A stretch of DNA of 32,000 nucleotides from Pyrobaculum aerophilum str. IM2 (GCF_000007225.1 NC_003364.1:570001-602000), one strand, 5' to 3'; shown: positions 2,963-23,545, numbered from the stretch's first letter. Translations and numbers: made by a program. The notes: generated by a model not told the origin, from the letters alone.

Positions 2963-4408
2963 GTGGTCACGCAGTACCTCTCCCGCCTCAGGACTCTAGA
3001 CAGGTACGTAGGCGATTACGACGTTGTAATAGTGGGGGCGGGCCCCGCGGGATTATTCGCCGCGCTTGAACTGGCCGAGGCGGGCGGGCTGAAAATAGCG
3101 TTAATAGACGGCGGGTATAGGGCGTCGCAGAGGCACTGCCCCCTTCAGACCCCCTTGGAGAAGTGTACATACTGCGTGCCGTGCCACATAATGTACGGCA
3201 TAGGCGGCGCCGGGACTCTCAGCTCGGGGCTTATTAACTTAAGGCCTGACGTCGGCGGTGATTTACACGAGCTAGTGGGCGACTGGGACAAGGCCATGGA
3301 GCTCATAAACTACATAGACTCTATATTTGTTAAATTCGGCGCGCCTGAACACGTATATGAGCCGAACATGGAGGCTATTAACAAGCTTTCGGCCCTCGCC
3401 GCCAGGGTGAACGCCAGGATTGTGCCAATAAGGCAGAGGCATATGGGCACAGACGGGAGCAGAAAAGTGGTGGAGGCCATGACGCAGTATTTAGAGGGCG
3501 CAGGGGTGGCGGTCATGTACGCCACGTGGGCCTTGGAGGTAGAGAGGGGAGAAAACGGGACGTTCACTGTGAAGACAACTCGCGGAGTATTAAACGCCAG
3601 GGCCGTCCTCCTCGCCCCGGGGAGGGGAGGGGCTGAGTGGCTTGTGTCCCAGCTTAAAAAACTGGGCGCCAGCCTGGACTTCGGCCCGGTGGATATAGGA
3701 GTGCGCGTTGAAGTGCCCTACCACGTAATGCGGCCGCTCACAGACGCAGTACACGACCCGAAGGTAATACTCTACACGTCAAAATACGACGACAAAGTGA
3801 GGACGTTTTGCACAAACCCCCGCGGCTTTGTGGTAAAAGAGGTATACTCAGACGGCACAATAGGCGTAAACGGCGAGACTTATCTAGAGAAGAAAAGTGA
3901 GAACACGAACTTCGCCTTTTTAGTCACTCTGAGGCTCACAGATCCCATGGAGGACACCATTGAGTTCGGAAAGTCCATTGCCAGACTCGCCACTAAGCTG
4001 GGCGGAGGGAAGCCCCTAATCCAAAGGCTTTACGACTTAGAAAGAGGCCAGAGATCCACTTGGGACCGCATCCGCCGCTCAAGCATATCGCCCACATTAA
4101 AAGACGTCACCCCCGGCGACATCTCCTTGGCCCTCCCCCACCGCATTGTGGAGGACATAATTGAGGGGCTGAAGAAGCTGGACGAACTGGCGCCCGGCGT
4201 GGCGAGTCCCCAGACGCTGATATACGCCCCCGAGATTAAATACTACTCGGCGAGGCCGACTGTAGACGCCCACTTAATGACCACAGTGCCCGGCCTCTTT
4301 GTCGCTGGAGACGGCGCCGGCCTCTCCAGAGGTATAAACGTAGCGGCGGCCACAGGCGTACTGGCGGCGCGGGGCATATTGAAATACCTCAGCTCGGCTG
4401 GGGCGTAG
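2963..4408 (+). CDS. FAD-dependent oxidoreductase, COG2509-like, with a Cys cluster insert
   Basis: It has the Rossmann fingerprint [20 protein letters not shown], a [16 protein letters not shown] four-Cys motif and a C-terminal [10 protein letters not shown]. The track ORF begins at TTG 2909. I prefer the in-frame GTG at 2963 because CTATATATAC (2932-2941) lies about 25 nt upstream. Confidence 0.8.
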
Positions 4409-4946
4409 GCCTAGCCCCCCTCCTCACCAGATAGCAGAAAGTGATATAATAGCCTATAAATAAAATTAAATAACGTATATAGTTAGCGGCAGTTCTTTCA
4501 GGGCTATCACCGTACGTGAATATGTAAACATCGGCGAGGACGTTGTAAGGCCAAGCTATTCCAAAGGCAGTGAGATTCGCGCCCACCAACCCGCCGAGCG
4601 CCTTCAAGACGCCCTTAAAACCCCCCACTGAATACGCCAGCCAGAAAGGCCTCACGATAAAATACCAAAACGCCGCAGGTAGCGCGGGAAACACAGCGAG
4701 TAGGGCAACCTCCGGCGTGCCAAAACTAGCCGCGTATAGAAAACCCCCGGCCAGAAGAGCAAAGCGGGGCGGCGGCCTAGATAGGCAAATATCAATAACC
4801 CACATCAACACAATGATATAAACACCCCACACCCTCAAGACAAAATGCACGCCGTGAGGAGGTGGAAATACCCCTATTAAGAGCAGGAGTACAAAACCGA
4901 TGAAAAAAGCAAGTATTATTTGAACTCTACGAAAAAGCCGCTCCAT
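4389..4946 (-). CDS. small polytopic membrane protein (185 aa), partner of the 795-aa surface protein (module A)
   Basis: Hydrophobic segments run throughout. The N-terminus MERLFRR and the C-terminal FIGYYI motif are shared with the 16648..17178 ORF. Its start overlaps the 3' end of the upstream gene by 31 nt. Confidence 0.6.
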
Positions 4947-7303
4947 GCCATTGCGTACGGCTCCTCAGGCCCATTAAAAATCCTGTACGCATCATCATGG
5001 TGCACTCTTAAGAACGTCAAATAGTAATAATACCCGGCCAGGTTTATGTCCACGTAGGTGCTGTAAGTCGCCTCGTGGTACATTATCCTCTCTGTAAGGG
5101 CAACTCCTCTAGTCTGCGGGGTGCCTACTCCACCAATGTAGATATGTGCAAAATCAATTTTCCCATAAGTGCCGGCGTTGTAGCCAGATGAAACGTAATA
5201 CGAAGAGGGAGAACACGTATACTCTTGTGGCGTTTGAACCGTTTTCAAGAGGCTGTCTATACCCCACACAGCTAGTGATCCAGCCACTATTAACGGGTTG
5301 GTATAAAATAGTGATATAAACGTCAAAATAGTACCGACTATATAAACAGCAGCATTTGTGGCAGAAACCAGCCAATTGATATCATATTTATAGGGATCTT
5401 GAATGTATATATCCATAGTTATTGGGCTTCCTACGTAGTTCACATTAGCACTGCCCACTACGGCCACGCAGACTTTTCTCAGTTCTACATTATTTCCCCA
5501 CTTAAGATAAGAGTACGTCAAGCGTCCATTGGGTGTAGTATATTCATAGCCCACAAACATCTGGGATGTGAGTCTGATGTCTGCATAGGCCAGTCTGGAT
5601 CGTAGGGTTATGGGGTCAACCGTCTCGTTGTATCTTGTGCTGGATAACCACACGGTGTACATGAAGATATCCCTTACGTGGCTGCCTCTGGAGACAGGAA
5701 CATCTGGAAAGACTGCTCTGCCACTTATCCAAGTCCTTGAGTTTTCGCGCCAGATCTCCGGCCATCTGTATCCCCAAAGGGATACTCTGAGGTTCTTTAA
5801 TTCGGCGGGAGTCCGTCCGCGAGTCACCGGGGGGTCGAAGACTAAATACAGCGGTAAGTAAGTAGTCGCGTTTGCGGCGTACCACCACTTGGCGGCGTCC
5901 TCAAGACGCACCCAGGCATAGGTACCGAAAGGACCATTGTCAAAAACGAACTCCCTACACCCGTCAAATGTGCCTACATACCGGCTTGATGTGAGCGTTG
6001 TGACTACTCTAGAACCGAGGATTACGGTGACGCTCTGGGTGTTGGTGTTTGTACATGTCTTCACCTTGAAGTTAGAAATCCACAGCCACGCATCCGCCGA
6101 GGCGCCTGGCGCAATACGCGCCACGAAGACGACGCTCTTTATAGGCTTAGAATAATCAAGTACTACCCCAAGCCAGCCGCCTGGCTGTACGAGATCCCAC
6201 CGCCAGTTAGCCCTGAGAAGCCCGTAGGCGCTGAGGGGATCCGCCGGCCTTCTGTATACAACCGTTATAGATATGTTGAGCGGCCTACCTGTTGAGAGGA
6301 TGTCAGTATACACCTCTATATAATAATTACTATATTGCGACACGTCAAATACATAGATCTTCCTGTATACATTTTCAAACCTGTACTCTAGCGGTGATTG
6401 ATACAGCCATACTGAGTTGGGTAGTTGCCCAGGCTGTGTGTAGTACCGCACATTTAGCCAAGCGTAAGGCCCAGGCTCGGGATCGCCCCGGCGCCAGGCG
6501 ACATGTACATATACCCTCTGCACGCCGTAACCTAAATACGCGTAGTGACTTTTCCAATCATCTTTACCGTAGAAAGTGTATTTTTTGCCGTCGAAGCCGT
6601 TTGCTATCCAGAAACGCGCCGCCGTAGACGCTGTATATATCTTAGAGTCAACTACATTCGCATGCACCAGCGGGGCGAAGAGGTAGCTCCCGTAGGCGTT
6701 AACAGTGGTGGAATTAGAGGCGTAATCCGTCGTGCCCGCCTCTCCGTTTGCCCGCGCGGGGGCCTTTTCTGGCTCTTTGAGCGGCTGGCGCCTTGGGGGT
6801 TGGTTTTTAGGCTCTCTTATATCCAGCGGCTTGTTCCCTATGTACAACTTCCCGTTTCTCTCCTCAGCAAATACCCAGAGCTCTAATCTCCCCGCAGTTT
6901 TTATGGCCTTACCTCTCGGCGTATTTATTATCTGAGACTCGCCCAGCTCTGTGGCGTTTCTGGGGAGGATTAGTCTCACTTTGCCGAGACCCTCCACTTC
7001 TAAATCAAAGGCTCTTGGGTGCCCTCTGGCGAAATTATTAAATGCTTTTCTGGGAACCGCGACGTATCTGCCGACGGGCACCGGCACAGTTATGTTAACC
7101 CCCTCCTCTGCGAAGTACGCCGTCTGGTTTACATAAATTTCAACTATAGGCACGGGCTCGATTTCCCTCCCTATTACAACGTAGGGGAATACATCCTCTT
7201 CCAGATCTACTTTTAGAAATACCACGTCCTCAATTCCGTAAGCCCACGCGTATATGACTAACAACACTGCGCCAAGCGCTATTAACGGGAGTTTAGGCAA
7301 CAT
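4916..7303 (-). CDS. large secreted/membrane-anchored surface protein, 795 aa, unknown family (module A)
   Basis: The long ORF has an N-terminal hydrophobic anchor (MLPKLPLIALGAVLLVIYAWAYG) and 7 N-x-S/T sequons. A Pro/charged linker (REPKNQPPRRQPLKEPEKAPARA) is present, along with a Tyr/Trp/Asn-rich body and hydrophobic helices near aa 655-700. TTAAAAAT lies about 24 nt upstream of the ATG. Confidence 0.75.
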   Translation of the reverse strand: MLPKLPLIALGAVLLVIYAWAYGIEDVVFLKVDLEEDVFPYVVIGREIEPVPIVEIYVNQTAYFAEEGVNITVPVPVGRYVAVPRKAFNNFARGHPRAFDLEVEGLGKVRLILPRNATELGESQIINTPRGKAIKTAGRLELWVFAEERNGKLYIGNKPLDIREPKNQPPRRQPLKEPEKAPARANGEAGTTDYASNSTTVNAYGSYLFAPLVHANVVDSKIYTASTAARFWIANGFDGKKYTFYGKDDWKSHYAYLGYGVQRVYVHVAWRRGDPEPGPYAWLNVRYYTQPGQLPNSVWLYQSPLEYRFENVYRKIYVFDVSQYSNYYIEVYTDILSTGRPLNISITVVYRRPADPLSAYGLLRANWRWDLVQPGGWLGVVLDYSKPIKSVVFVARIAPGASADAWLWISNFKVKTCTNTNTQSVTVILGSRVVTTLTSSRYVGTFDGCREFVFDNGPFGTYAWVRLEDAAKWWYAANATTYLPLYLVFDPPVTRGRTPAELKNLRVSLWGYRWPEIWRENSRTWISGRAVFPDVPVSRGSHVRDIFMYTVWLSSTRYNETVDPITLRSRLAYADIRLTSQMFVGYEYTTPNGRLTYSYLKWGNNVELRKVCVAVVGSANVNYVGSPITMDIYIQDPYKYDINWLVSATNAAVYIVGTILTFISLFYTNPLIVAGSLAVWGIDSLLKTVQTPQEYTCSPSSYYVSSGYNAGTYGKIDFAHIYIGGVGTPQTRGVALTERIMYHEATYSTYVDINLAGYYYYLTFLRVHHDDAYRIFNGPEEPYAMAWSGFFVEFK

Positions 7304-14453: not shown

Positions 14454-16655
14454 ATGATACGGGTGTTAATAGCAGTAATAGCGTTGTTGACAGTACTGCT
14501 CGCGGCCGGCCAGATCCCGCCAGGAAAGCCCCTTATATGTCTCAACGCCAGCGAGGCGGGGCTGGAGGGCTCGCCGCCGATGCTCGCGGGGTTTGTAGTT
14601 GGGAGAGGAGGACAGGAGCCGGTTCAGCTGTACGTCAACGGGACTGTTATTAACGTCGTCGGGATCTGGGACGCCAATTCCACCAAGCCGCAAATTCAGA
14701 ACATCACCGTGCTCCCGCCGGCGATTAAGGGGCTTATCTGCTTCCAGCCGGGGGATCCCGTCCCGGCTAGAGTGGCCAGAGGCCTTTATTTAGAGGTGGA
14801 GGCCCGGGGGAGGAGATACGGCGTGACGATAATAAACGCCAGCGACGACCCCGCCGCGCCTCCCGCCGTGCCTCTTGAGTACTTGCCGAGGGACGTCGAG
14901 GTGATTAGGGGCAGAGTAGTGGCTAAGAGGGAAGTGGGAGAGCGTGGAGGGTTCCCCGCCGGGCTGGGCCGCGTTGAGGTCATGCAGATGATTCAGCCGT
15001 CGCAGAGTTTATTCAGAGATTTCAGCGGCTTTATAATTGCCTCTTTTAAATTGAACTATACTGATAACTACGTCCTCAACCTATACGGCTCCAGTGAGGC
15101 CTGCACCAAGGGGAGGTTTATCCTTCCAAACGGCACGGGCTGGTTCACCCTGGCCTTCACCCCCGCCACGAGAGCCGACGTTTACGGCGGGGCCTCTTAC
15201 CTATACCTCACAATTCGGGCCAGTGTATACGACGCCGATACAGACAAGCCGCTTGCGAACATAACGCTGGGCAACATATACGTCCCCAACCAGCCGAGGC
15301 CGTGGCATTTAGTAACTATTGATTTAAGCCAGTGGACGGGTCTCACAAAGAGAATTGATTTGACCATCTGCAAGCCGTCGGGTGTTTACGTCTACGGTAA
15401 GTACGTCATAGACGCGGTTGTATACGCCGCGGTTCCCGCGAAGTCGTACGCAGAGCCCTTCGCCCTTGAGTCCCCGGGCAGAAACACATTGGTGAAGCCT
15501 CCCACAGGCTCTTCACAGCTCTTTAACGGCACTTATTTGGCAATCCCAGGCCTCACCCCTCCGCCGGGCTATGCCCTGGGAAGCGCCAGGGCGAGTATTG
15601 TAATTAGGACGTGCTCTCCCAGAGCCCCGTCCAGCGTCAACATCTACTGGGGCCCCTTCTACATCGGCACTGTGAGTAGAATACAAGTGGACGGCTGTTA
15701 TTACTACGTGGTGACGCCGGCGGACTTCAGAGGCGGCTTTGACGCCGCCGTCAGATCTAGCTTGTACCTCGGGGGCACGCTACACGCCGTATACATAGGG
15801 CCGTTTAATAACGACGTTTACAACACAGGCCTTAGAATTGACCAACTCAGAATAGAAGGCCTATACAGGCCCGAGATGAACGCCAGAGCCTCGCGAATAT
15901 TCAAAGACTACGCAACTAACTGGGGATATATGACGCTGTCGAGTTTTGTCACAGTATATACTTACAATCCTAATGTGCCTATCATAGCTTATGGGAGCAA
16001 AGTTGATATTAAATTTAGCGCACACGGCTTGTCGTACAGAACGCCTCGCCTCATAATCGCTGTTCAGAAGTATGACGGGATGGTTCATTGCGGCAGTATC
16101 AGCTTTGTGGTAAGGGCCTATTCCAACGGCCAGCCTGTAACGCTAGATCCCGACGGTACGGCTGGCGTATATCAACAAGGCGGTAATTCAGATCTTCTTT
16201 GGGTTGACCTTCTTGTGGACTTTATATCGAATTTATTGGACGAGGCGAAAAACGCCGTGTCGCAATTAGTATTAAAAGTCGTGAGCTGGGTCAGTTTTAC
16301 TATTGGCTTTGTACAAGCAGCCTCGTTTGTTGGCGTTGACAGGGTGAAGACGCAAGACGGAGGAGTTTCATACACTATTTCAATTGGGTCGCTAGCACCT
16401 GATGCAATTGTAATAGACGGGGCGACTTTCTCGCATAGTTTACCCAGCGATGCACCTATTGAGTTTAGAATTGAACGGATTCAGACGTCTTGCGCCGGTT
16501 TTACCCACTCCTTTGGCGACTACTCGATATATCTCGACCCGATGGCTAATTCCCTTAGTACTCAGTACATACACGCTTTCCGGACGTTTACGTGCGGAAA
16601 ACAGGAGATCGGTTGGCCTTCAATATCAGTATGTACCCCGTCGATTTATGGCTAG
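14454..16655 (+). CDS. large secreted/membrane-anchored surface protein, 733 aa, paralogous to 4916..7303 (module B)
   Basis: It has an N-terminal hydrophobic signal/anchor (MIRVLIAVIALLTVLLAAGQ), 9 N-x-S/T sequons and a Pro-rich linker (DDPAAPPAVPLEY). A hydrophobic stretch lies near aa 585-625. Three colinear N-terminal blocks are shared with the 795-aa protein: QLYVNGT/EIYVNQT, NITVLPP/NITVPVP and LEVEARGRRYGVTIINAS/LEVEGLGKVRLILPRNAT. Confidence 0.75.
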   Translation: MIRVLIAVIALLTVLLAAGQIPPGKPLICLNASEAGLEGSPPMLAGFVVGRGGQEPVQLYVNGTVINVVGIWDANSTKPQIQNITVLPPAIKGLICFQPGDPVPARVARGLYLEVEARGRRYGVTIINASDDPAAPPAVPLEYLPRDVEVIRGRVVAKREVGERGGFPAGLGRVEVMQMIQPSQSLFRDFSGFIIASFKLNYTDNYVLNLYGSSEACTKGRFILPNGTGWFTLAFTPATRADVYGGASYLYLTIRASVYDADTDKPLANITLGNIYVPNQPRPWHLVTIDLSQWTGLTKRIDLTICKPSGVYVYGKYVIDAVVYAAVPAKSYAEPFALESPGRNTLVKPPTGSSQLFNGTYLAIPGLTPPPGYALGSARASIVIRTCSPRAPSSVNIYWGPFYIGTVSRIQVDGCYYYVVTPADFRGGFDAAVRSSLYLGGTLHAVYIGPFNNDVYNTGLRIDQLRIEGLYRPEMNARASRIFKDYATNWGYMTLSSFVTVYTYNPNVPIIAYGSKVDIKFSAHGLSYRTPRLIIAVQKYDGMVHCGSISFVVRAYSNGQPVTLDPDGTAGVYQQGGNSDLLWVDLLVDFISNLLDEAKNAVSQLVLKVVSWVSFTIGFVQAASFVGVDRVKTQDGGVSYTISIGSLAPDAIVIDGATFSHSLPSDAPIEFRIERIQTSCAGFTHSFGDYSIYLDPMANSLSTQYIHAFRTFTCGKQEIGWPSISVCTPSIYG

Positions 16656-17178
16656 GCTTTTTAAATACCCCTTTTTCAGGATGGGCCTGGCCCTGGGGGT
16701 TATGTCTTTTTTCCACTTATTTCTATTTGGTTTTTTGAGGGAGGGCCTTTTACTTGCCGCCGTTGTGTCCTATTTCTCCGCCTACGGCGTGGCGTATAAC
16801 TGGCGCTGGGTTTTGCCGTGGGTTGGGGCTGTGGTTGCGGGGGTTTTTATCAGCGGGAGAATTGTGGTGGTTTTTGTATTTTTCCTTTACCTGGCCTTTA
16901 TGTTGGCAGTTCCCCTGTTTTTAACTAGGGGGGTGCGGAGCAGGGTAAAGTCGCTTTTCTTTTTCGTGCTTGGGCATTTCCTCTCAGGCGTCCCGCTTTT
17001 ATTAATTTCGCCGCTGTGGCGGTCTCTGGTCCCACACCCCTTTGAGTTCATCGCCTACGGCCCGGCCATCCCGACGCCTGTGGACTGGCCTTGGTACTTC
17101 GTGGGGTATTACGTTTGGGAGAGGGTCCACAGCTTGTATAAGGGGCTGCCGAGTGGCTTCACGCGGCCGGAGGGCTAG
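16648..17178 (+). CDS. small polytopic membrane protein (176 aa), partner of the 733-aa surface protein (module B)
   Basis: ATG 16648 overlaps the upstream stop by 8 nt. The track ORF's earlier start (16450) lies inside the 733-aa gene in another frame. The N-terminus MARLFKY and the C-terminal FVGYYV motif parallel the 185-aa ORF at 4389..4946. Confidence 0.65.
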   Translation: MARLFKYPFFRMGLALGVMSFFHLFLFGFLREGLLLAAVVSYFSAYGVAYNWRWVLPWVGAVVAGVFISGRIVVVFVFFLYLAFMLAVPLFLTRGVRSRVKSLFFFVLGHFLSGVPLLLISPLWRSLVPHPFEFIAYGPAIPTPVDWPWYFVGYYVWERVHSLYKGLPSGFTRPEG

Positions 17179-17318
17179 GCCGCCGGGTAAAGTTCTTAAA
17201 CCTCTGGGTAGGTGGCCTTGTGCCGGGACTACGCCGGGTGAGAGCGGCGTGTGCCGCCCTGTGAATCCGGCGGGGTGCCTTCCCCTCTAGTTTATATACC
17301 CCTAAATAGAATAATAGT

Positions 17319-17762
17319 ATGAGGGGGGCTGTGGTGAGTATTCAAGTGGCGGTTCTTTTAGTCTTTATCTTGGCAATAGCCGTGGCCTTGGCCGGCTATT
17401 TGTATACTACTTTTTATTCCTCTTTGCAGTATACCTATATTGCCCTTACCCAGGCGTATATATATCCCACGCCGTCGGGGGCTGAGGTAAAAATTTGTTT
17501 TTCCGTGGGGGGCTCCGGCGGACTGACAATAACGGGCGTGGAGCTGGACGGGAGACCAGCGGCGAGTTTTAAGGTATATGTGAGGGGGGCTGAGGCCGGC
17601 GAGGTGAGGGCGGGGGATGTGGGGTATATCAAGGCGGATTTCCCCGGCGTCGTTGTACGGCCGGGCTGGATGCCGACTGGGAGAGTGGTCACTAGACAGG
17701 GGTTTAGCTTTTTGTTCACGCCTTCTGTGTCCCAGGCCGAGGGGCGTTGTCCTGGCGAGTAG
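17319..17762 (+). CDS. archaeal type IV pilin-like protein with a class III signal peptide
   Basis: The N-terminus MRG|AVVSIQVAVLLVFILAIAVALAGYLY fits the prepilin-peptidase motif [KR]-G-[A]-[V] followed by a hydrophobic helix. The downstream LTITGVELDGRPA resembles the beta-domain of DUF1628-type pilins. TTTATATA is centred 24.5 nt upstream of the ATG. Confidence 0.6.
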   Translation: MRGAVVSIQVAVLLVFILAIAVALAGYLYTTFYSSLQYTYIALTQAYIYPTPSGAEVKICFSVGGSGGLTITGVELDGRPAASFKVYVRGAEAGEVRAGDVGYIKADFPGVVVRPGWMPTGRVVTRQGFSFLFTPSVSQAEGRCPGE

Positions 17763-20918: not shown

Positions 20919-21445
20919 ACGACGTCATTGCCGTGGCTGACACGCTCTGCAAAACCCCGCGAGTGGGGTGGTTGCAACGGGGCGTGTCCGAGGCTGAGAG
21001 CGTCTGCGCCCACGTCCTTTTGACCACTCTGTTAGCCGGCGAAATCGCGGCGCATTTAAACGCCGAGGGAGTTGAGGTGGACATAGCAAAAGTACTCGCG
21101 GTGGCCGCCGTCCACGACTTGGCGGAGTCCGTGCTGGGGCACCCAGGCCGGGAGGTTAGGGATAAAATACGCTGGGAGGAGGCGGAGGAGGAGGTTTTCA
21201 AGAGGGAGTTCCCCCACTTGGCAGAGCTGTTTAGGTGGTACAGATACGAGACAAACCTAGTGGGCAGGATTGTCTCGTTTGCAGACAAATTGGCGACTTT
21301 AATAAGAGCGTGCAGGTATAAAAAACTGGGTTACGACACAGACGACTTGATAAAAAACCTCTACCGCAAGCTGGCAAAATACGACGACTTAGCGCACATA
21401 CTCGACATCTACGTCGCGCGCTACTGCCAAGGCGTTACCCTTTAG
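20915..21445 (+). CDS. HD-domain phosphohydrolase, YfbR/HDDC2-like
   Basis: PRVGWLQRGVSEAESVCAHVLLT and AAVHDLAESVLG match the YfbR-type H...HD motifs. It overlaps gatD by 4 nt. Confidence 0.8.
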   Translation: MNDVIAVADTLCKTPRVGWLQRGVSEAESVCAHVLLTTLLAGEIAAHLNAEGVEVDIAKVLAVAAVHDLAESVLGHPGREVRDKIRWEEAEEEVFKREFPHLAELFRWYRYETNLVGRIVSFADKLATLIRACRYKKLGYDTDDLIKNLYRKLAKYDDLAHILDIYVARYCQGVTL

Positions 21446-21744
21446 AACTTGTAGACCGTGTTTTTCCCGCGTATATACGCTCCCCGACACTACAGCGCCC
21501 CGCTCCTCCCCCGCATCCCCACGGCGCCTGCGGGACGGCTCAAAGGGCCTTAACCGCTTAAACCCCTGGCGCCTTTAAAGCCGGCCTATAGGCCTCCCCG
21601 CCCCGCCAGGTCGATCCCGCTTCTAACCACCACCCACAGATTTACATTTGGCGGACTCCGAATAGCGCAGTCAGTTTTTATATCAACTCCCGCGTATTAC
21701 TCAACGCCAGCTTAAACCCCCAGCTTATTCGCCGTTATCATGTT

Positions 21745-22220
21745 GTTTCAATTCTTTTGTAGATTCTTCGAGGGAGGAGAGGAGTGGCAGATTACCACAA
21801 CACTTTGCGGTTTCAATTCTTTTGTAGATTCTTCTGTAAAACTGCCCCCGGCCCCGGCCTCCACAACATATACATTGTTTCAATTCTTTTGTAGATTCTT
21901 CGGTTATAGAAGCAAAAATAGTTGAAATACCGAGGATATGTTAGTTTCAATTCTTTTGTAGATTCTTCTTAGCGCTTGGCTGGAAGAAGAGTTAGAAGAA
22001 TTAAAGTTTCAATTCTTTTGTAGATTCTTCATAGGGCTATTACAGAGAATATCTGGAAGAAGCTTAGCAACAGTTTCAATTCTTTTGTAGATTCTTCTAT
22101 GGCTCTTCTTAAGTTATATTTTTGTAAAGAGAAAGTTTCAATTCTTTTGTAGATTCTTCCAGCAGAGGCATTCTATTGGGATAGCGTAAAACAATGTTTC
22201 AATTCTTTTGTAGATTCTTC
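21745..22220 (-). CRISPR. CRISPR array: 8 identical 25-nt repeats and 7 spacers (40, 42, 42, 37, 42, 37, 36 nt)
   Basis: The repeat GTTTCAATTCTTTTGTAGATTCTTC starts at 21745, 21810, 21877, 21944, 22006, 22073, 22135 and 22196. Its reverse complement GAAGAATCTACAAAAGAATTGAAAC ends in ATTGAAAC, the usual 8-nt crRNA 5' handle. An A/T-rich leader lies on the high-coordinate side, so the array is probably transcribed on the minus strand. Confidence 0.95.
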
Positions 22221-22450
22221 TGTGGGTTTTTATTCGGGATGTTAGTTTTTCCCACTTTATAAATTTTTTGTCTCACGTCTGTTTTCCTCCTCGGCGGCTG
22301 GGGCATTTCGGCGGGGCGCCACAGCACGCTTACCACAACACTGGATAAGAAGATAAACATTAACAAAAACACAATAGAAAAAGATAGAGACAACGCTGAG
22401 GGGTATTTGCTTCGAGTCCCAAATTTTACAAAGTAAAGGATTAAAAACAA
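22221..22450 (-). promoter_or_regulatory. putative CRISPR leader with TATA box
   Basis: This A/T-rich tract sits immediately next to repeat 8. The minus strand reads AAATTTATAAAGTGGG (about 22250-22265), roughly 35 nt upstream of the first repeat. The far boundary is approximate. Confidence 0.5.
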
Positions 22451-23020
22451 TTAGACCGTAAAAACTGAAATTTATTCTGTAAACTTATCCAAGGGTTTGA
22501 AATCTTGGCAGAGAGGTGTGTCTAGGCTATTTTTAACTTGAATGGAGCTTTACTGAGGTAAAGCATGGATGCATGCGTGACTGGTTTTGGATGCCGTAGA
22601 TATGCCAGAACGCGTGCGGCGTGTCTATCCTAAGCCGTTAGGGCCTGTTGTCTTGTGAATAAGGCGGCGTTCAGCCGCTTTTTAGGCCGTGGCATCTTTT
22701 CACAAGCCCTTGTTCCGTGATGTCCAGCTTCTCTGCGGCTTGGCATTTCAGTACTGCCGTGGGGCTGTGAGCATGTTAAGGCTGGCGCGGTGGGGGTCGC
22801 CGGCTCTGCGCGCGAGGCCCTAGGGAGACGATTATTGTCGGAGTCGTGTTGGGTTCGGAGGCGATGGAGACAGGCCTAAGCGCGACGCTTCAATAAAAGC
22901 GAGACGGTGTTGATAGCGTTTACGGGAGGCGCTCTTTGCCGGCATAAGGCGCTGAGAGGGGCCATAGGTCGGCGGGCGGTTTCTCCGCCCTCGCCGTGAG
23001 CGCGTTTCTGCCGGGGCTTT

Positions 23021-23545
23021 TTAGAGATATTCTATTCTCACCGACTCTTGGCGGTACGGCAGGATTAAGGACTTGCCCAGGGGGTCCTCTACAACTAGCG
23101 TGAAGCCCCCTTCGTCGATTTTCTTATAAACCTTCTGAATGAATTGGTCTACTTTATCCGCGCTTTCGGGCTCCAGCACTTTAAGCCTCTCTGCGTAGTC
23201 TACAACTTTGTAAAGGAATCCTTCGACAGTTGTTATCATGGGCTCGCCGTGTGTGCCGGGCTCCAGCGTAAAGCCGAGGTCGGGGGAGCTAATTGAGCCC
23301 GTCTTGCTCCGTATGAGAAAGGACTTGGCCACGTCTACGCCGTCCAGCGCCGTGAAGACAATCCGCGTGGGCCGTCCAACCTCTGCGTAATCTATGTCGA
23401 ATAGCCTGTAGCCGCAACTGCTACAAAAGCCGCTTTGAATCAGCACGTTGCCGAAAAACGGCGTTTCGTATAACAACTCAGTATATCTAAACGTCTTCGC
23501 GCCGCATACCGGGCACGTCACTTCGCCGCCGAAAATAACAGACAT
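23021..23545 (-). CDS. ZPR1-type zinc-finger protein (COG1779-like)
   Basis: CPVCG...CSSCG zinc knuckles are followed by a ZPR1 beta-domain-like sequence. The second ATG (23545, MSVIFGGEVTCPVCG) is preferred because the first ATG (23575) lies at the edge of the TATA element. Confidence 0.8.
   Translation of the reverse strand: MSVIFGGEVTCPVCGAKTFRYTELLYETPFFGNVLIQSGFCSSCGYRLFDIDYAEVGRPTRIVFTALDGVDVAKSFLIRSKTGSISSPDLGFTLEPGTHGEPMITTVEGFLYKVVDYAERLKVLEPESADKVDQFIQKVYKKIDEGGFTLVVEDPLGKSLILPYRQESVRIEYL

Follow-up and report, generated by a model that had tools for sequence, protein, structure and literature searches.

A conserved pair of overlapping Pyrobaculum genes as a candidate envelope module, distinct from a neighbouring type IV pilin gene

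Introduction

In the Sulfolobales, adjacent genes encode SlaA, a large, glycosylated, beta-rich outer protein that is the single abundant lattice protein of the surface layer (S-layer), and SlaB, a single-span membrane stalk that holds it. In Pyrobaculum arsenaticum the S-layer protein is PySLP, of 292 kDa and 2,667 residues, with 19 immunoglobulin (Ig)-like domains, a C-terminal membrane helix and a basic tail (bioRxiv 10.64898/2026.08.21.746120). Here we describe a pair of overlapping genes, L and S, in a 32,000-nucleotide (nt) stretch of the Pyrobaculum aerophilum str. IM2 genome (GCF_000007225.1 NC_003364.1:570001-602000; ‘the window’, in which positions are counted from the first letter). 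The pair encodes a large, predicted secreted protein and a small membrane protein, and has the character of a compact orphan envelope module: multi-copy, paired across deep divergence, and occupying a sharply divergent tract between near-identical strains. We put forward, tentatively, the reading that L/S is a membrane-tethered, glycan-coated, non-enzymatic surface assembly in which S anchors or assembles secreted L. As a concrete candidate for a virus- or cell-recognition structure, L/S bears on the envelope of the Thermoproteales, which is unusual. Three features make it worth following up: the strict pairing, the glycan polarity and the divergence among alleles.

L/S resembles SlaA/SlaB in the adjacency of the genes and, in the arrangement proposed here, in combining a large, glycosylated, beta-rich outer protein with a membrane partner that holds it. 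The two systems share no sequence similarity; S has five to six spans where the SlaB stalk has one, L is far smaller than SlaA, and L/S occurs in several paralogous copies, rather than as a single abundant lattice protein, in a genus that has its own S-layer protein. With PySLP, L has in common the genus and the features of a secreted, probably N-glycosylated, all-beta surface protein, but it is 733 residues long, ends without a membrane helix and is paired with a separate polytopic protein. An earlier reading of the window, made from its sequence alone (‘the sequence-only reading’), had joined L, S and a third gene into one surface module and had offered an S-layer-associated complex as one option; because the S-layer protein of Pyrobaculum is already identified as PySLP, a 292-kDa Ig-domain protein (bioRxiv 10.64898/2026.08.21.746120), the possibility that L is the S-layer protein itself is excluded. 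The analysis also separates from the former ‘module’ a type IV pilin paralogue and a known small RNA (sRNA) gene, both of them known kinds of gene.

Results

L and S are a conserved two-gene unit

The three genes, called as open reading frames (ORFs), are as follows (aa, amino acids):

14454 to 16655, + strand: L733 (L), the large ORF, 733 aa
16648 to 17178, + strand: S176 (S), the small ORF, 176 aa, starting MARLFKY
17319 to 17762, + strand: P147, the third ORF, 147 aa, starting MRGAVVSIQ

L and S overlap by 8 nt (the string ATGGCTAG), and a spacer of 140 bp separates S from P147; the co-orientation, coordinates, overlap and gap given by the sequence-only reading were all reproduced. S176 is contained within a longer, mechanically called ORF beginning at 16450, and the starts of its orthologues agree with the MARLFKY start. 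All three are real genes, as judged from the ratio of non-synonymous to synonymous substitution (dN/dS) in a strain pair, 0.31 for L and 0.17 for S, and from the 18 clusters of homologues found for P147. Over the L/S region the window was identical to a locus of a P. aerophilum assembly (GCA_013329805.1; L021), and the neighbouring genes in both are housekeeping genes, namely those for RtcB, an S9 peptidase, GatD and an HD hydrolase, together with histidine-biosynthesis genes.

L733 is a member of ‘P. aerophilum family 59’, a family that exists as an annotation only (in P. aerophilum IM2 and P. arsenaticum), with AAL63234.1/Q8ZXW2 and A4WKM6 (‘Family 59 protein’) among the relatives so labelled. 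A profile of L733 orthologues matched cluster P0017, which holds AAL63234.1, with E = 4.1e-46 over profile positions 25-728, and cluster P0008 (A4WKM6) with E = 1.5e-232. L733 shares with the labelled proteins its length, its signal peptide and a C-terminal RTFTCGKQE motif. The label comes without a function, a domain model or mention of a partner gene, and the pairing, sequon polarity and strain divergence reported here were in no annotation or paper found. The earlier view that L has no nameable family therefore needs amending: no characterised family was found for it, but a public, functionless label exists. A word-indexed search of 5.8 billion proteins recovered ten L733 clusters, all of the named ones from Pyrobaculum, and an exhaustive profile search of 1.84 billion representatives recovered only 20 proteins at E <= 1e-3, with lengths of 660-794 aa where full-length. 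Among named genomes, L/S is restricted to Pyrobaculum.

Searches of Pfam, NCBIfam, PHROGs and PADLOC with L733, S176, P147 and the second cassette described below (L795 and S185) returned nothing usable. L733 had no match in Pfam, NCBIfam, PHROG, PADLOC or a PDB sequence-profile search; S176 had none in Pfam or PDB, with nothing added by scanning each member of the S alignment; and none of L733, S176 and P147 had a PADLOC or PHROG match. Scanning the individual members of the pilin alignment likewise contributed nothing. A search of the literature on family 59, on PAE locus tags and on Pyrobaculum glycoproteins found nothing on the L or S proteins.

The family alignment of L comprised 24 sequences in four subfamilies, with identity down to approximately 20%, and its best conserved stretch was the extreme C-terminus, [FY]RT[FL]xCGxQE...C:

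16581 to 16652, + strand: C-terminal signature of L, RTFTCGKQE-x-C-x4-YG, best conserved stretch of the family

This stretch, picked automatically, served as the search pattern for family-59 loci. A scan of genomes, in which the patterns were strict, gave a single locus, that of P. oguniense, and 18 metagenomic loci were also collected. In P. oguniense a 740-aa L orthologue precedes a 180-aa S homologue, the two genes once more overlapping by 8 nt, and the pair lies between KsgA and RNase Z upstream and GatE downstream. A 702-aa paralogue of P. aerophilum is found with its partner beside an ABC (ATP-binding cassette) transporter and eIF-1A; the surroundings differ, so that only the L/S pair is conserved. 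In 17/17 other loci with intact downstream DNA, L was followed by an overlapping S homologue, even at approximately 20% identity, while the two exceptions look frameshifted. The S homologues were 177-231 aa long with 3-5 or more hydrophobic spans, overlapped L by 8 to 38 nt, and all aligned with S176. Pairwise distances among L proteins and among their S partners were strongly correlated (r = 0.97, 91 pairs), so that partners have not been swapped. It is clear from the pairing, the overlap and the co-divergence that L and S are a conserved two-gene unit, and here the sequence-only reading, which had proposed that the large and small genes function together, was correct. S is translationally coupled to L through the 8-nt overlap. 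The ABC transporter encoded upstream of the 702-aa paralogue was considered as a functional partner and rejected, as that synteny is confined to close relatives.

Potential glycosylation sites are concentrated in the N-terminal half of L

Along L733 the following regions were distinguished:

14454 to 14525, + strand: Sec-type signal peptide, residues 1-24 (MIR, hydrophobic core, AAGQ), hydropathy 2.56, modelled as a helix over residues 2-18
14526 to 15533, + strand: predicted glycan-rich N-terminal half, residues 25-360, with all 9 sequons of L733 and the Pro-rich linker
15534 to 16193, + strand: predicted glycan-free conserved core, residues 361-580, with the family-invariant motifs YWG, IGP and YRPEMN

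An equivalent signal-like N-terminus was present in every family-59 member aligned, and the signal peptide of L would be expected to be cleaved. L733 contains exactly 9 N-x-S/T sequons, compared with a mean of 3.5 in shuffled sequences (P ~0.006), whereas four cytoplasmic proteins encoded in the window, taken as a control, carry one sequon each, which is the level expected by chance. The distribution along the protein was uneven across the 24 family members:

Residues 1-180: 76 sequons observed, 9.6 expected
Residues 181-360: 52 sequons observed, 29 expected
Residues 361-580: 3 sequons observed, 24.7 expected
Residues 581-733: 10 sequons observed, 17 expected

Sequons N75, N226 and N358 were kept in position in 13-16/24 sequences. 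The enrichment points to real N-glycosylation and to an extracellular location for L, while depletion below chance in residues 361-580 suggests that the core meets the glycosylation machinery and yet must stay free of glycans. Judged by this pattern, residues 361-580 would behave as expected of a protein-protein interface.

The Pro-rich stretch (DDPAAPPAVPLEYLP) falls at approximately residues 131-145 of the translation. With it, the N-terminal hydrophobic segment, the nine sequons and a late hydrophobic segment, every feature that the sequence-only reading had listed for the 733-aa protein is present. The late segment (residues 602-623) is borderline in hydrophobicity (Kyte-Doolittle 1.65) with a Lys in its middle, and there is no hydrophobic span past residue 710 in a protein that ends ...CTPSIYG. 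L733 holds 10 Cys. Residues invariant in the family alignment were P88, C96, F198, P225, P365, Y398, G400, G441, G449, P450, R472 and P473 and, near the C-terminus, R710, T711, C714, G715 and C727, with C29, G36, G39, T228, Q717 and E718 near-invariant. Gly, Pro, Cys and aromatic residues, two Arg and one Thr thus account for the invariant positions across the 24 sequences. That Asp, His, Ser and Lys are missing from this set speaks against L having the active site of a hydrolase or toxin.

L is predicted to be a stack of beta-sandwich domains

AlphaFold2 modelled L733 poorly from 11 close orthologues (predicted local distance difference test, pLDDT, 48.5), but with the 24 diverse sequences it reached a pLDDT of 79.2 and a predicted template modelling score (pTM) of 0.82. 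In the model the signal helix (residues 2-18) is followed by beta-strand domains from residue 27 to approximately 574 and by a C-terminal beta domain from residue 626; the protein is all-beta, in a stacked beta-sandwich layout, save for one element:

16203 to 16322, + strand: alpha-helical hairpin, residues 584-623, with modelled helices at 584-598 and 606-623 (pLDDT 37-49)

The ‘late hydrophobic segment’ is the second helix of this hairpin. Similar two-helix segments were seen in L795 (residues 645-677) and in a 717-aa cassette protein (from residue 577 onward), both described below. The high pTM suggests that the domains flanking the hairpin sit together compactly, which would favour a hairpin over a single membrane span.

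A Foldseek search with the model gave no global structural match: there were only local matches to carbohydrate-binding module (CBM), cohesin, lectin and tail-fibre-like beta-sandwiches (global TM-score, or template modelling score, <= 0.17). That L is a predicted secreted glycoprotein with beta-sandwich or jelly-roll domains, that its alleles vary between strains, and that its best matches in a viral structure library were tail-fibre and tail proteins are what might be expected if L/S were a domesticated or integrated envelope pair from a virus or mobile element, or else a component of the S-layer lattice. We consider this very unlikely. The structural matches were local (TM-score <= 0.15), no tblastn match was obtained in 50,697 phage and virus records, there was no relative on an IMG/VR contig and no PHROG match, and the flanking genes are housekeeping genes; a viral origin of L/S has no support. 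As to the lattice, the S-layer protein identified in Pyrobaculum is a 2,667-residue Ig-domain protein (bioRxiv 10.64898/2026.08.21.746120).

S is a small polytopic protein with conserved polar residues

Five clear hydrophobic spans can be counted in S176, with perhaps a sixth of aromatic character. In the hydropathy and charge profile of the S family, K/R-rich segments alternate with hydrophobic spans, and from this we infer a topology in which the N-terminus would lie inside, followed by five spans, an outer Pro-rich loop (WR..VP...P.P.D), the possible sixth span and a basic tail inside. The family invariants are R99, S102, R125, P142, P144, D146, P148, Y150 and H161; there is no invariant Cys.

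The polar invariants R99, S102, R125, D146 and H161, taken together with the C-terminal motif as the most conserved part of L, with strict co-inheritance of the two genes, and with a signal peptide whose probable cleavage leaves L no clear membrane span, could mean that S is a dedicated maturation, insertion or processing factor (a membrane enzyme or chaperone) that reads the C-terminal RTxxCGxQE...C of L, L then being released or attached elsewhere. A conserved C-terminal signature with a dedicated polytopic protein is also what L/S has in common with the sorting systems PGF-CTERM/archaeosortase ArtA, PEP-CTERM/exosortase and LPXTG/sortase. However, the motif of L is not followed by the membrane helix and basic tail that are seen in known sorting signals, so that the tripartite C-terminus is lacking; S has no Cys/Arg/His site, being without an invariant Cys, is much smaller than archaeosortases, and resembles neither the archaeosortase, rhomboid and CPBP families nor any further family in Pfam or PDB. 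Neither L nor S matched a sortase or archaeosortase model in Pfam or NCBIfam, and one dedicated enzyme for each substrate copy, in each paralogous cassette, would be unusual. We regard a maturation role for S as unlikely.

L and S have diverged together between near-identical strains

The window was compared with two P. aerophilum-type loci, one from an isolate assembly (L020) and one from a metagenome (L022). The flanking S9 peptidase, GatD, HD and pilin genes (in both) and RtcB (in L020) were 99.2-100% identical at the DNA level, RtcB in L022 being represented by its 5′ end only, at 87% identity. L was 85-86% and S 88-92% identical between the window and the two loci. Against L022, synonymous divergence (dS) reached 0.36 in L and 0.41 in S but was 0.002-0.014 in flanking genes, and dN/dS (0.31 and 0.17, as above) was below 1 everywhere. 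The divergence is confined to a tract with sharp edges (69-92% identity, between flanks of 99-100%) that covers approximately 14785-17230 of the window in the comparison with L020, and 741-3678 of L022. Against L020 it starts at approximately codon 110 of L and ends at the sRNA gene downstream of S, whereas against L022 it reaches the 5′ end of RtcB; it stops short of the pilin gene, which is 99.5-100% identical between strains. The mosaic-like pattern in these three strains is what homologous recombination leaves behind when it moves old, cognate L/S alleles.

In L020 (1137-3340) the reading frame of the family-59 gene is broken within the linker region, at a G/C run (GGAGGGCCCCCGCCGGG), into parts of 167 and 567 aa. 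Loss of the gene to a pseudogene, slippage at the homopolymer or faulty assembly could each explain this.

Joint divergence of L and S alleles between near-identical strains, with a small polytopic gene immediately downstream of L and co-inherited with it, is also reminiscent of polymorphic toxin-immunity systems, in which a cognate gene lies downstream; L/S might be such a cassette (archaeocin-like), or one for kin recognition, with L as effector or recognition protein and S as immunity protein or receptor. The occurrence of several cassettes per genome, some adjoining paREP2b and TnpB-like genes, and the frameshifted L of one strain fit this explanation as well. Family, structure and PDB searches, however, found no toxin, peptidase, nuclease or pore-forming domain, and no catalytic residue is invariant. 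Divergence extends all along L, and conservation is highest at its C-terminus, whereas polymorphic toxins combine a conserved N-terminal delivery region with a variable C-terminal toxin domain; dN/dS is < 1 throughout; the subfamilies resemble old, stable orthologous groups rather than products of fast turnover; and no orphan S genes were present in the loci examined. A toxin-immunity cassette is, on this balance, quite improbable.

The large-plus-small architecture recurs in other cassettes

A second pair lies on the opposite strand of the window:

4916 to 7303, - strand: L795, a large protein of 795 aa; it has a signal peptide and 7 sequons, and residues 645-677 form a hydrophobic segment of two helices
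4389 to 4946, - strand: S185, its small polytopic partner, 185 aa, overlapping L795 by 31 nt

Homologues of L795 fell into four clusters only, from Pyrobaculum where named, and an overlapping small polytopic ORF was kept beside them even at 29% identity and in another genomic context (L024, L025). As the L795 homologues keep their own overlapping small ORF, L795/S185 is a second conserved cassette. In one of these loci, from a Pyrobaculum metagenome-assembled genome (L024, 7697-10370), the L795-type pair (789+191 aa) was found 0.8 kb upstream of an ORF of >2,449 aa, which puts it in the size range of the S-layer protein of Pyrobaculum; an available part of 891 residues had no Pfam match.

The relationship of L795 to family 59 was weak and unstable (BLASTP E = 0.057; 3 bits with hmmsearch; 5.9%, 51% and 11.5% with three alignments in hhalign), although hhalign always aligned the same TC...DGC...RPE stretch, and the C-terminus of L795 differs from the RTxxCGxQE motif of family 59. 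S185 was not significantly matched by a hidden Markov model of 16 S176-family sequences (hhalign 0.2%), and had one weak PHROG match, of unknown function. The sequence-only reading had stated that the pair at 14454-17178 recurs at 4389-7303; this holds for the architecture, with its 31-nt overlap, but the small proteins are unrelated by profile and homology between the large ones is weak and unstable (6-51% in hhalign).

Further cassettes were found together in another P. aerophilum assembly (GCA_003400025.1; L026, 8001-18109), which carries, in this order, a family-59 paralogue pair (702+179 aa), paREP2b and TnpB-like genes, a 717+186-aa pair without sequence similarity to either family, and an L795-family paralogue (715 aa). 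The 186-aa protein carries EPPADPLY, recalling the P.P.D.P.Y motif of the S family. L733, L795 and the 717-aa protein are laid out alike: each has a signal peptide, sequons weighted towards the N-terminus, and a segment of two helices that lies 110-140 residues before the C-terminal end. This architecture recurs, and the three cassette types may be of common descent.

A broader proposal is that the cassette families of Pyrobaculum, at least three in number (the family 59/S176, L795/S185 and 717+186-aa types), alike in architecture but without detectable sequence similarity, and each with a beta-sandwich stack glycosylated towards its N-terminus, represent a new class of archaeal polymorphic surface-recognition systems, possibly serving as virus receptors or decoys, or in recognition of kin or mating partners, with cognate alleles maintained and exchanged by recombination. 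This is speculative, and we think it rather unlikely.

A proposed arrangement of L and S at the cell surface

The tentative proposal with which we began, that of a non-enzymatic assembly in which S anchors or assembles L, would work as follows. L would leave the cell by the Sec pathway, losing its signal peptide, and fold into a compact stack of beta-sandwich, lectin/CBM-like domains held by conserved disulfides. Its N-terminal half would be heavily N-glycosylated and face outward, leaving the glycan-free core (residues 361-580), the most conserved region, for protein-protein contacts; L may also oligomerise. S, co-produced with L by translational coupling, would be a membrane protein of 5-6 spans with a cytoplasmic N-terminus and a single outer loop of any size, formed by the conserved, Pro-rich segment WR..VP...P.P.D.P.Y. 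Contact between the two would have S hold or assemble L at the membrane, probably by way of the alpha-hairpin (584-623) and the invariant C-terminal RTxxCGxQE...C of L. The complex, located in the space at or beneath the S-layer, would serve in binding or recognition and not as an enzyme. Each genome may carry several old paralogous cassettes, with cognate L/S alleles swapped between strains by recombination.

Several considerations weigh against this arrangement. The alpha-hairpin is modelled with low confidence (pLDDT 37-49), is marginally hydrophobic and has a charged residue inside it, and were it instead a single membrane span it would put the C-terminal domain in the cytoplasm. The beta-sandwich matches are generic, and as such uninformative on the ligand. 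The invariant Arg, Ser, Asp and His of S could mean a catalytic or transport role instead of anchoring. The divergent tract could reflect one or two chance recombination imports and not selection on the cassette. The 24 sequences of the sequon analysis share kinship, by which P values are overstated, although the pattern is still seen in all subfamilies. Finally, no experimental, proteome or transcriptome data on any family-59 member were found in the literature.

The downstream pilin gene and sRNA lie outside the L/S unit

Between S and P147 lie two further elements:

17219 to 17280, + strand: Pyrobac-1 sRNA gene (Rfam RF01722), scoring 68.4 bits where the gathering score is 40
17291 to 17298, + strand: TATA-like element TTTATATA, approximately 24 nt upstream of the pilin ATG

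The relevant described protein for P147 is Par_PilA, the type IV pilin of P. arsenaticum, whose structure was solved by cryo-electron microscopy (PDB 6W8U) and which is cleaved between RG and MT (PMC7347861). The 18 clusters of P147 homologues were all from Pyrobaculum where the organism was named, and one of them is named an archaeal type IV pilin N-terminal domain protein in UniRef. The profile built from 11 homologues matched 6W8U with E = 1.3e-12 (query residues 6-142, chain residues 2-130), and P147 itself was 29% identical to it in a pairwise comparison (BLASTP E = 2e-10). The N-terminus of P147 runs MRG/AVVSIQVAVLLVFILAIAVALAGYLY (MRG/AVVS), with R2 and G3 nearly invariant in the 11 homologues, and hydropathy rises to 2.94 over residues 1-34. 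An in-frame stop at 17307-17309, four codons upstream of the ATG, leaves no room for a longer N-terminus or signal. By these homologies P147 is classed as an archaeal type IV pilin with a class III signal, as the sequence-only reading had supposed from the N-terminus, and as a paralogue of Par_PilA; processing by PibD and assembly into a filament are predicted. An identification as UpsA (weak NCBIfam match, E = 0.02) was superseded by the 6W8U match.

P147 shares with Par_PilA full-length homology, RG before a hydrophobic N-terminal helix, and a beta-rich C-terminal domain, and its invariant C60 and C144 parallel the Cys80-Cys139 disulfide that links Par_PilA to its C-terminal extension. At 29% identity it is a paralogue and not an orthologue; its signal is of three residues (MRG), compared with seven in Par_PilA; and whereas Par_PilA is N-glycosylated, P147 has no Asn at all and hence no N-x-S/T sequon. 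Neither the Pfam-scanned ORFs of the window nor the gene calls of the identical strain locus included an ATPase or a platform protein of type IV pili, in agreement with the earlier statement that this is not a standard type IV pilus locus; the lack of assembly genes near P147 does not argue against its identity as a pilin.

The sequence-only reading would have L, S and P147 act together, for example as a pilus-associated adhesin with its anchor. The genes do share an orientation and are closely spaced in the window and in identical strain loci, and the pilin is genuine. Yet none of 19 other family-59 loci checked had a P147 homologue, and in P. oguniense S is followed by GatE. Pyrobac-1 and the TATA-like element intervene between S and the pilin gene, which appears to have a promoter of its own: TTTATATA suggests a separate, leaderless pilin transcript, if it functions as its sequence would predict. 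In L020 and L022 a further 1.9 kb with two opposite-strand genes is inserted there, and the recombination tract covers L/S and ends before the pilin. That the three act as one module is, in our estimation, extremely unlikely; P147 is an independent neighbour, outside the L/S unit. Pyrobac-1, too, was rejected as a part of that unit, being absent from 14 other family-59 loci. Weaker, overlapping matches at the Pyrobac-1 site were to Pyrobaculum H/ACA-like sRNA families.

In the sister strains Pyrobac-1 is doubled, as direct repeats around the 1.9-kb insert (L020 3930-3991 and 5902-5962; L022 3610-3671 and 5581-5641), from which it follows that the window represents the ‘empty’ or deleted form of an indel bounded by the sRNA. 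The insert (L020 4264-5701, - strand; L022 3944-5381, - strand) encodes two predicted surface or membrane proteins. The first, of 350 aa, has a signal at its N-terminus, sequons, and at its C-terminus a membrane helix with RRR after it; the second, of 131 aa, has a signal and many Cys. Neither had a Pfam match. As these are predicted envelope proteins, the variable island would carry more envelope genes.

Other features of the window

At the left end of the window, upstream of a gene for an FAD (flavin adenine dinucleotide)-dependent oxidoreductase, are a UPF0175 (antitoxin-like) ORF and a PaREP1-family ORF:

1256 to 1609, + strand: UPF0175 ORF
2222 to 2707, + strand: PaREP1-family ORF

To the right of the three genes is a small array resembling CRISPR (clustered regularly interspaced short palindromic repeats):

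21745 to 22220: CRISPR-like array, 8 copies of a ~25-nt repeat (GTTTCAATTCTTTTGTAGATTCTTC) with a period of 61-67 nt

The array sits in an ORF-poor gap (21445-23021), the length of which varies among strains.

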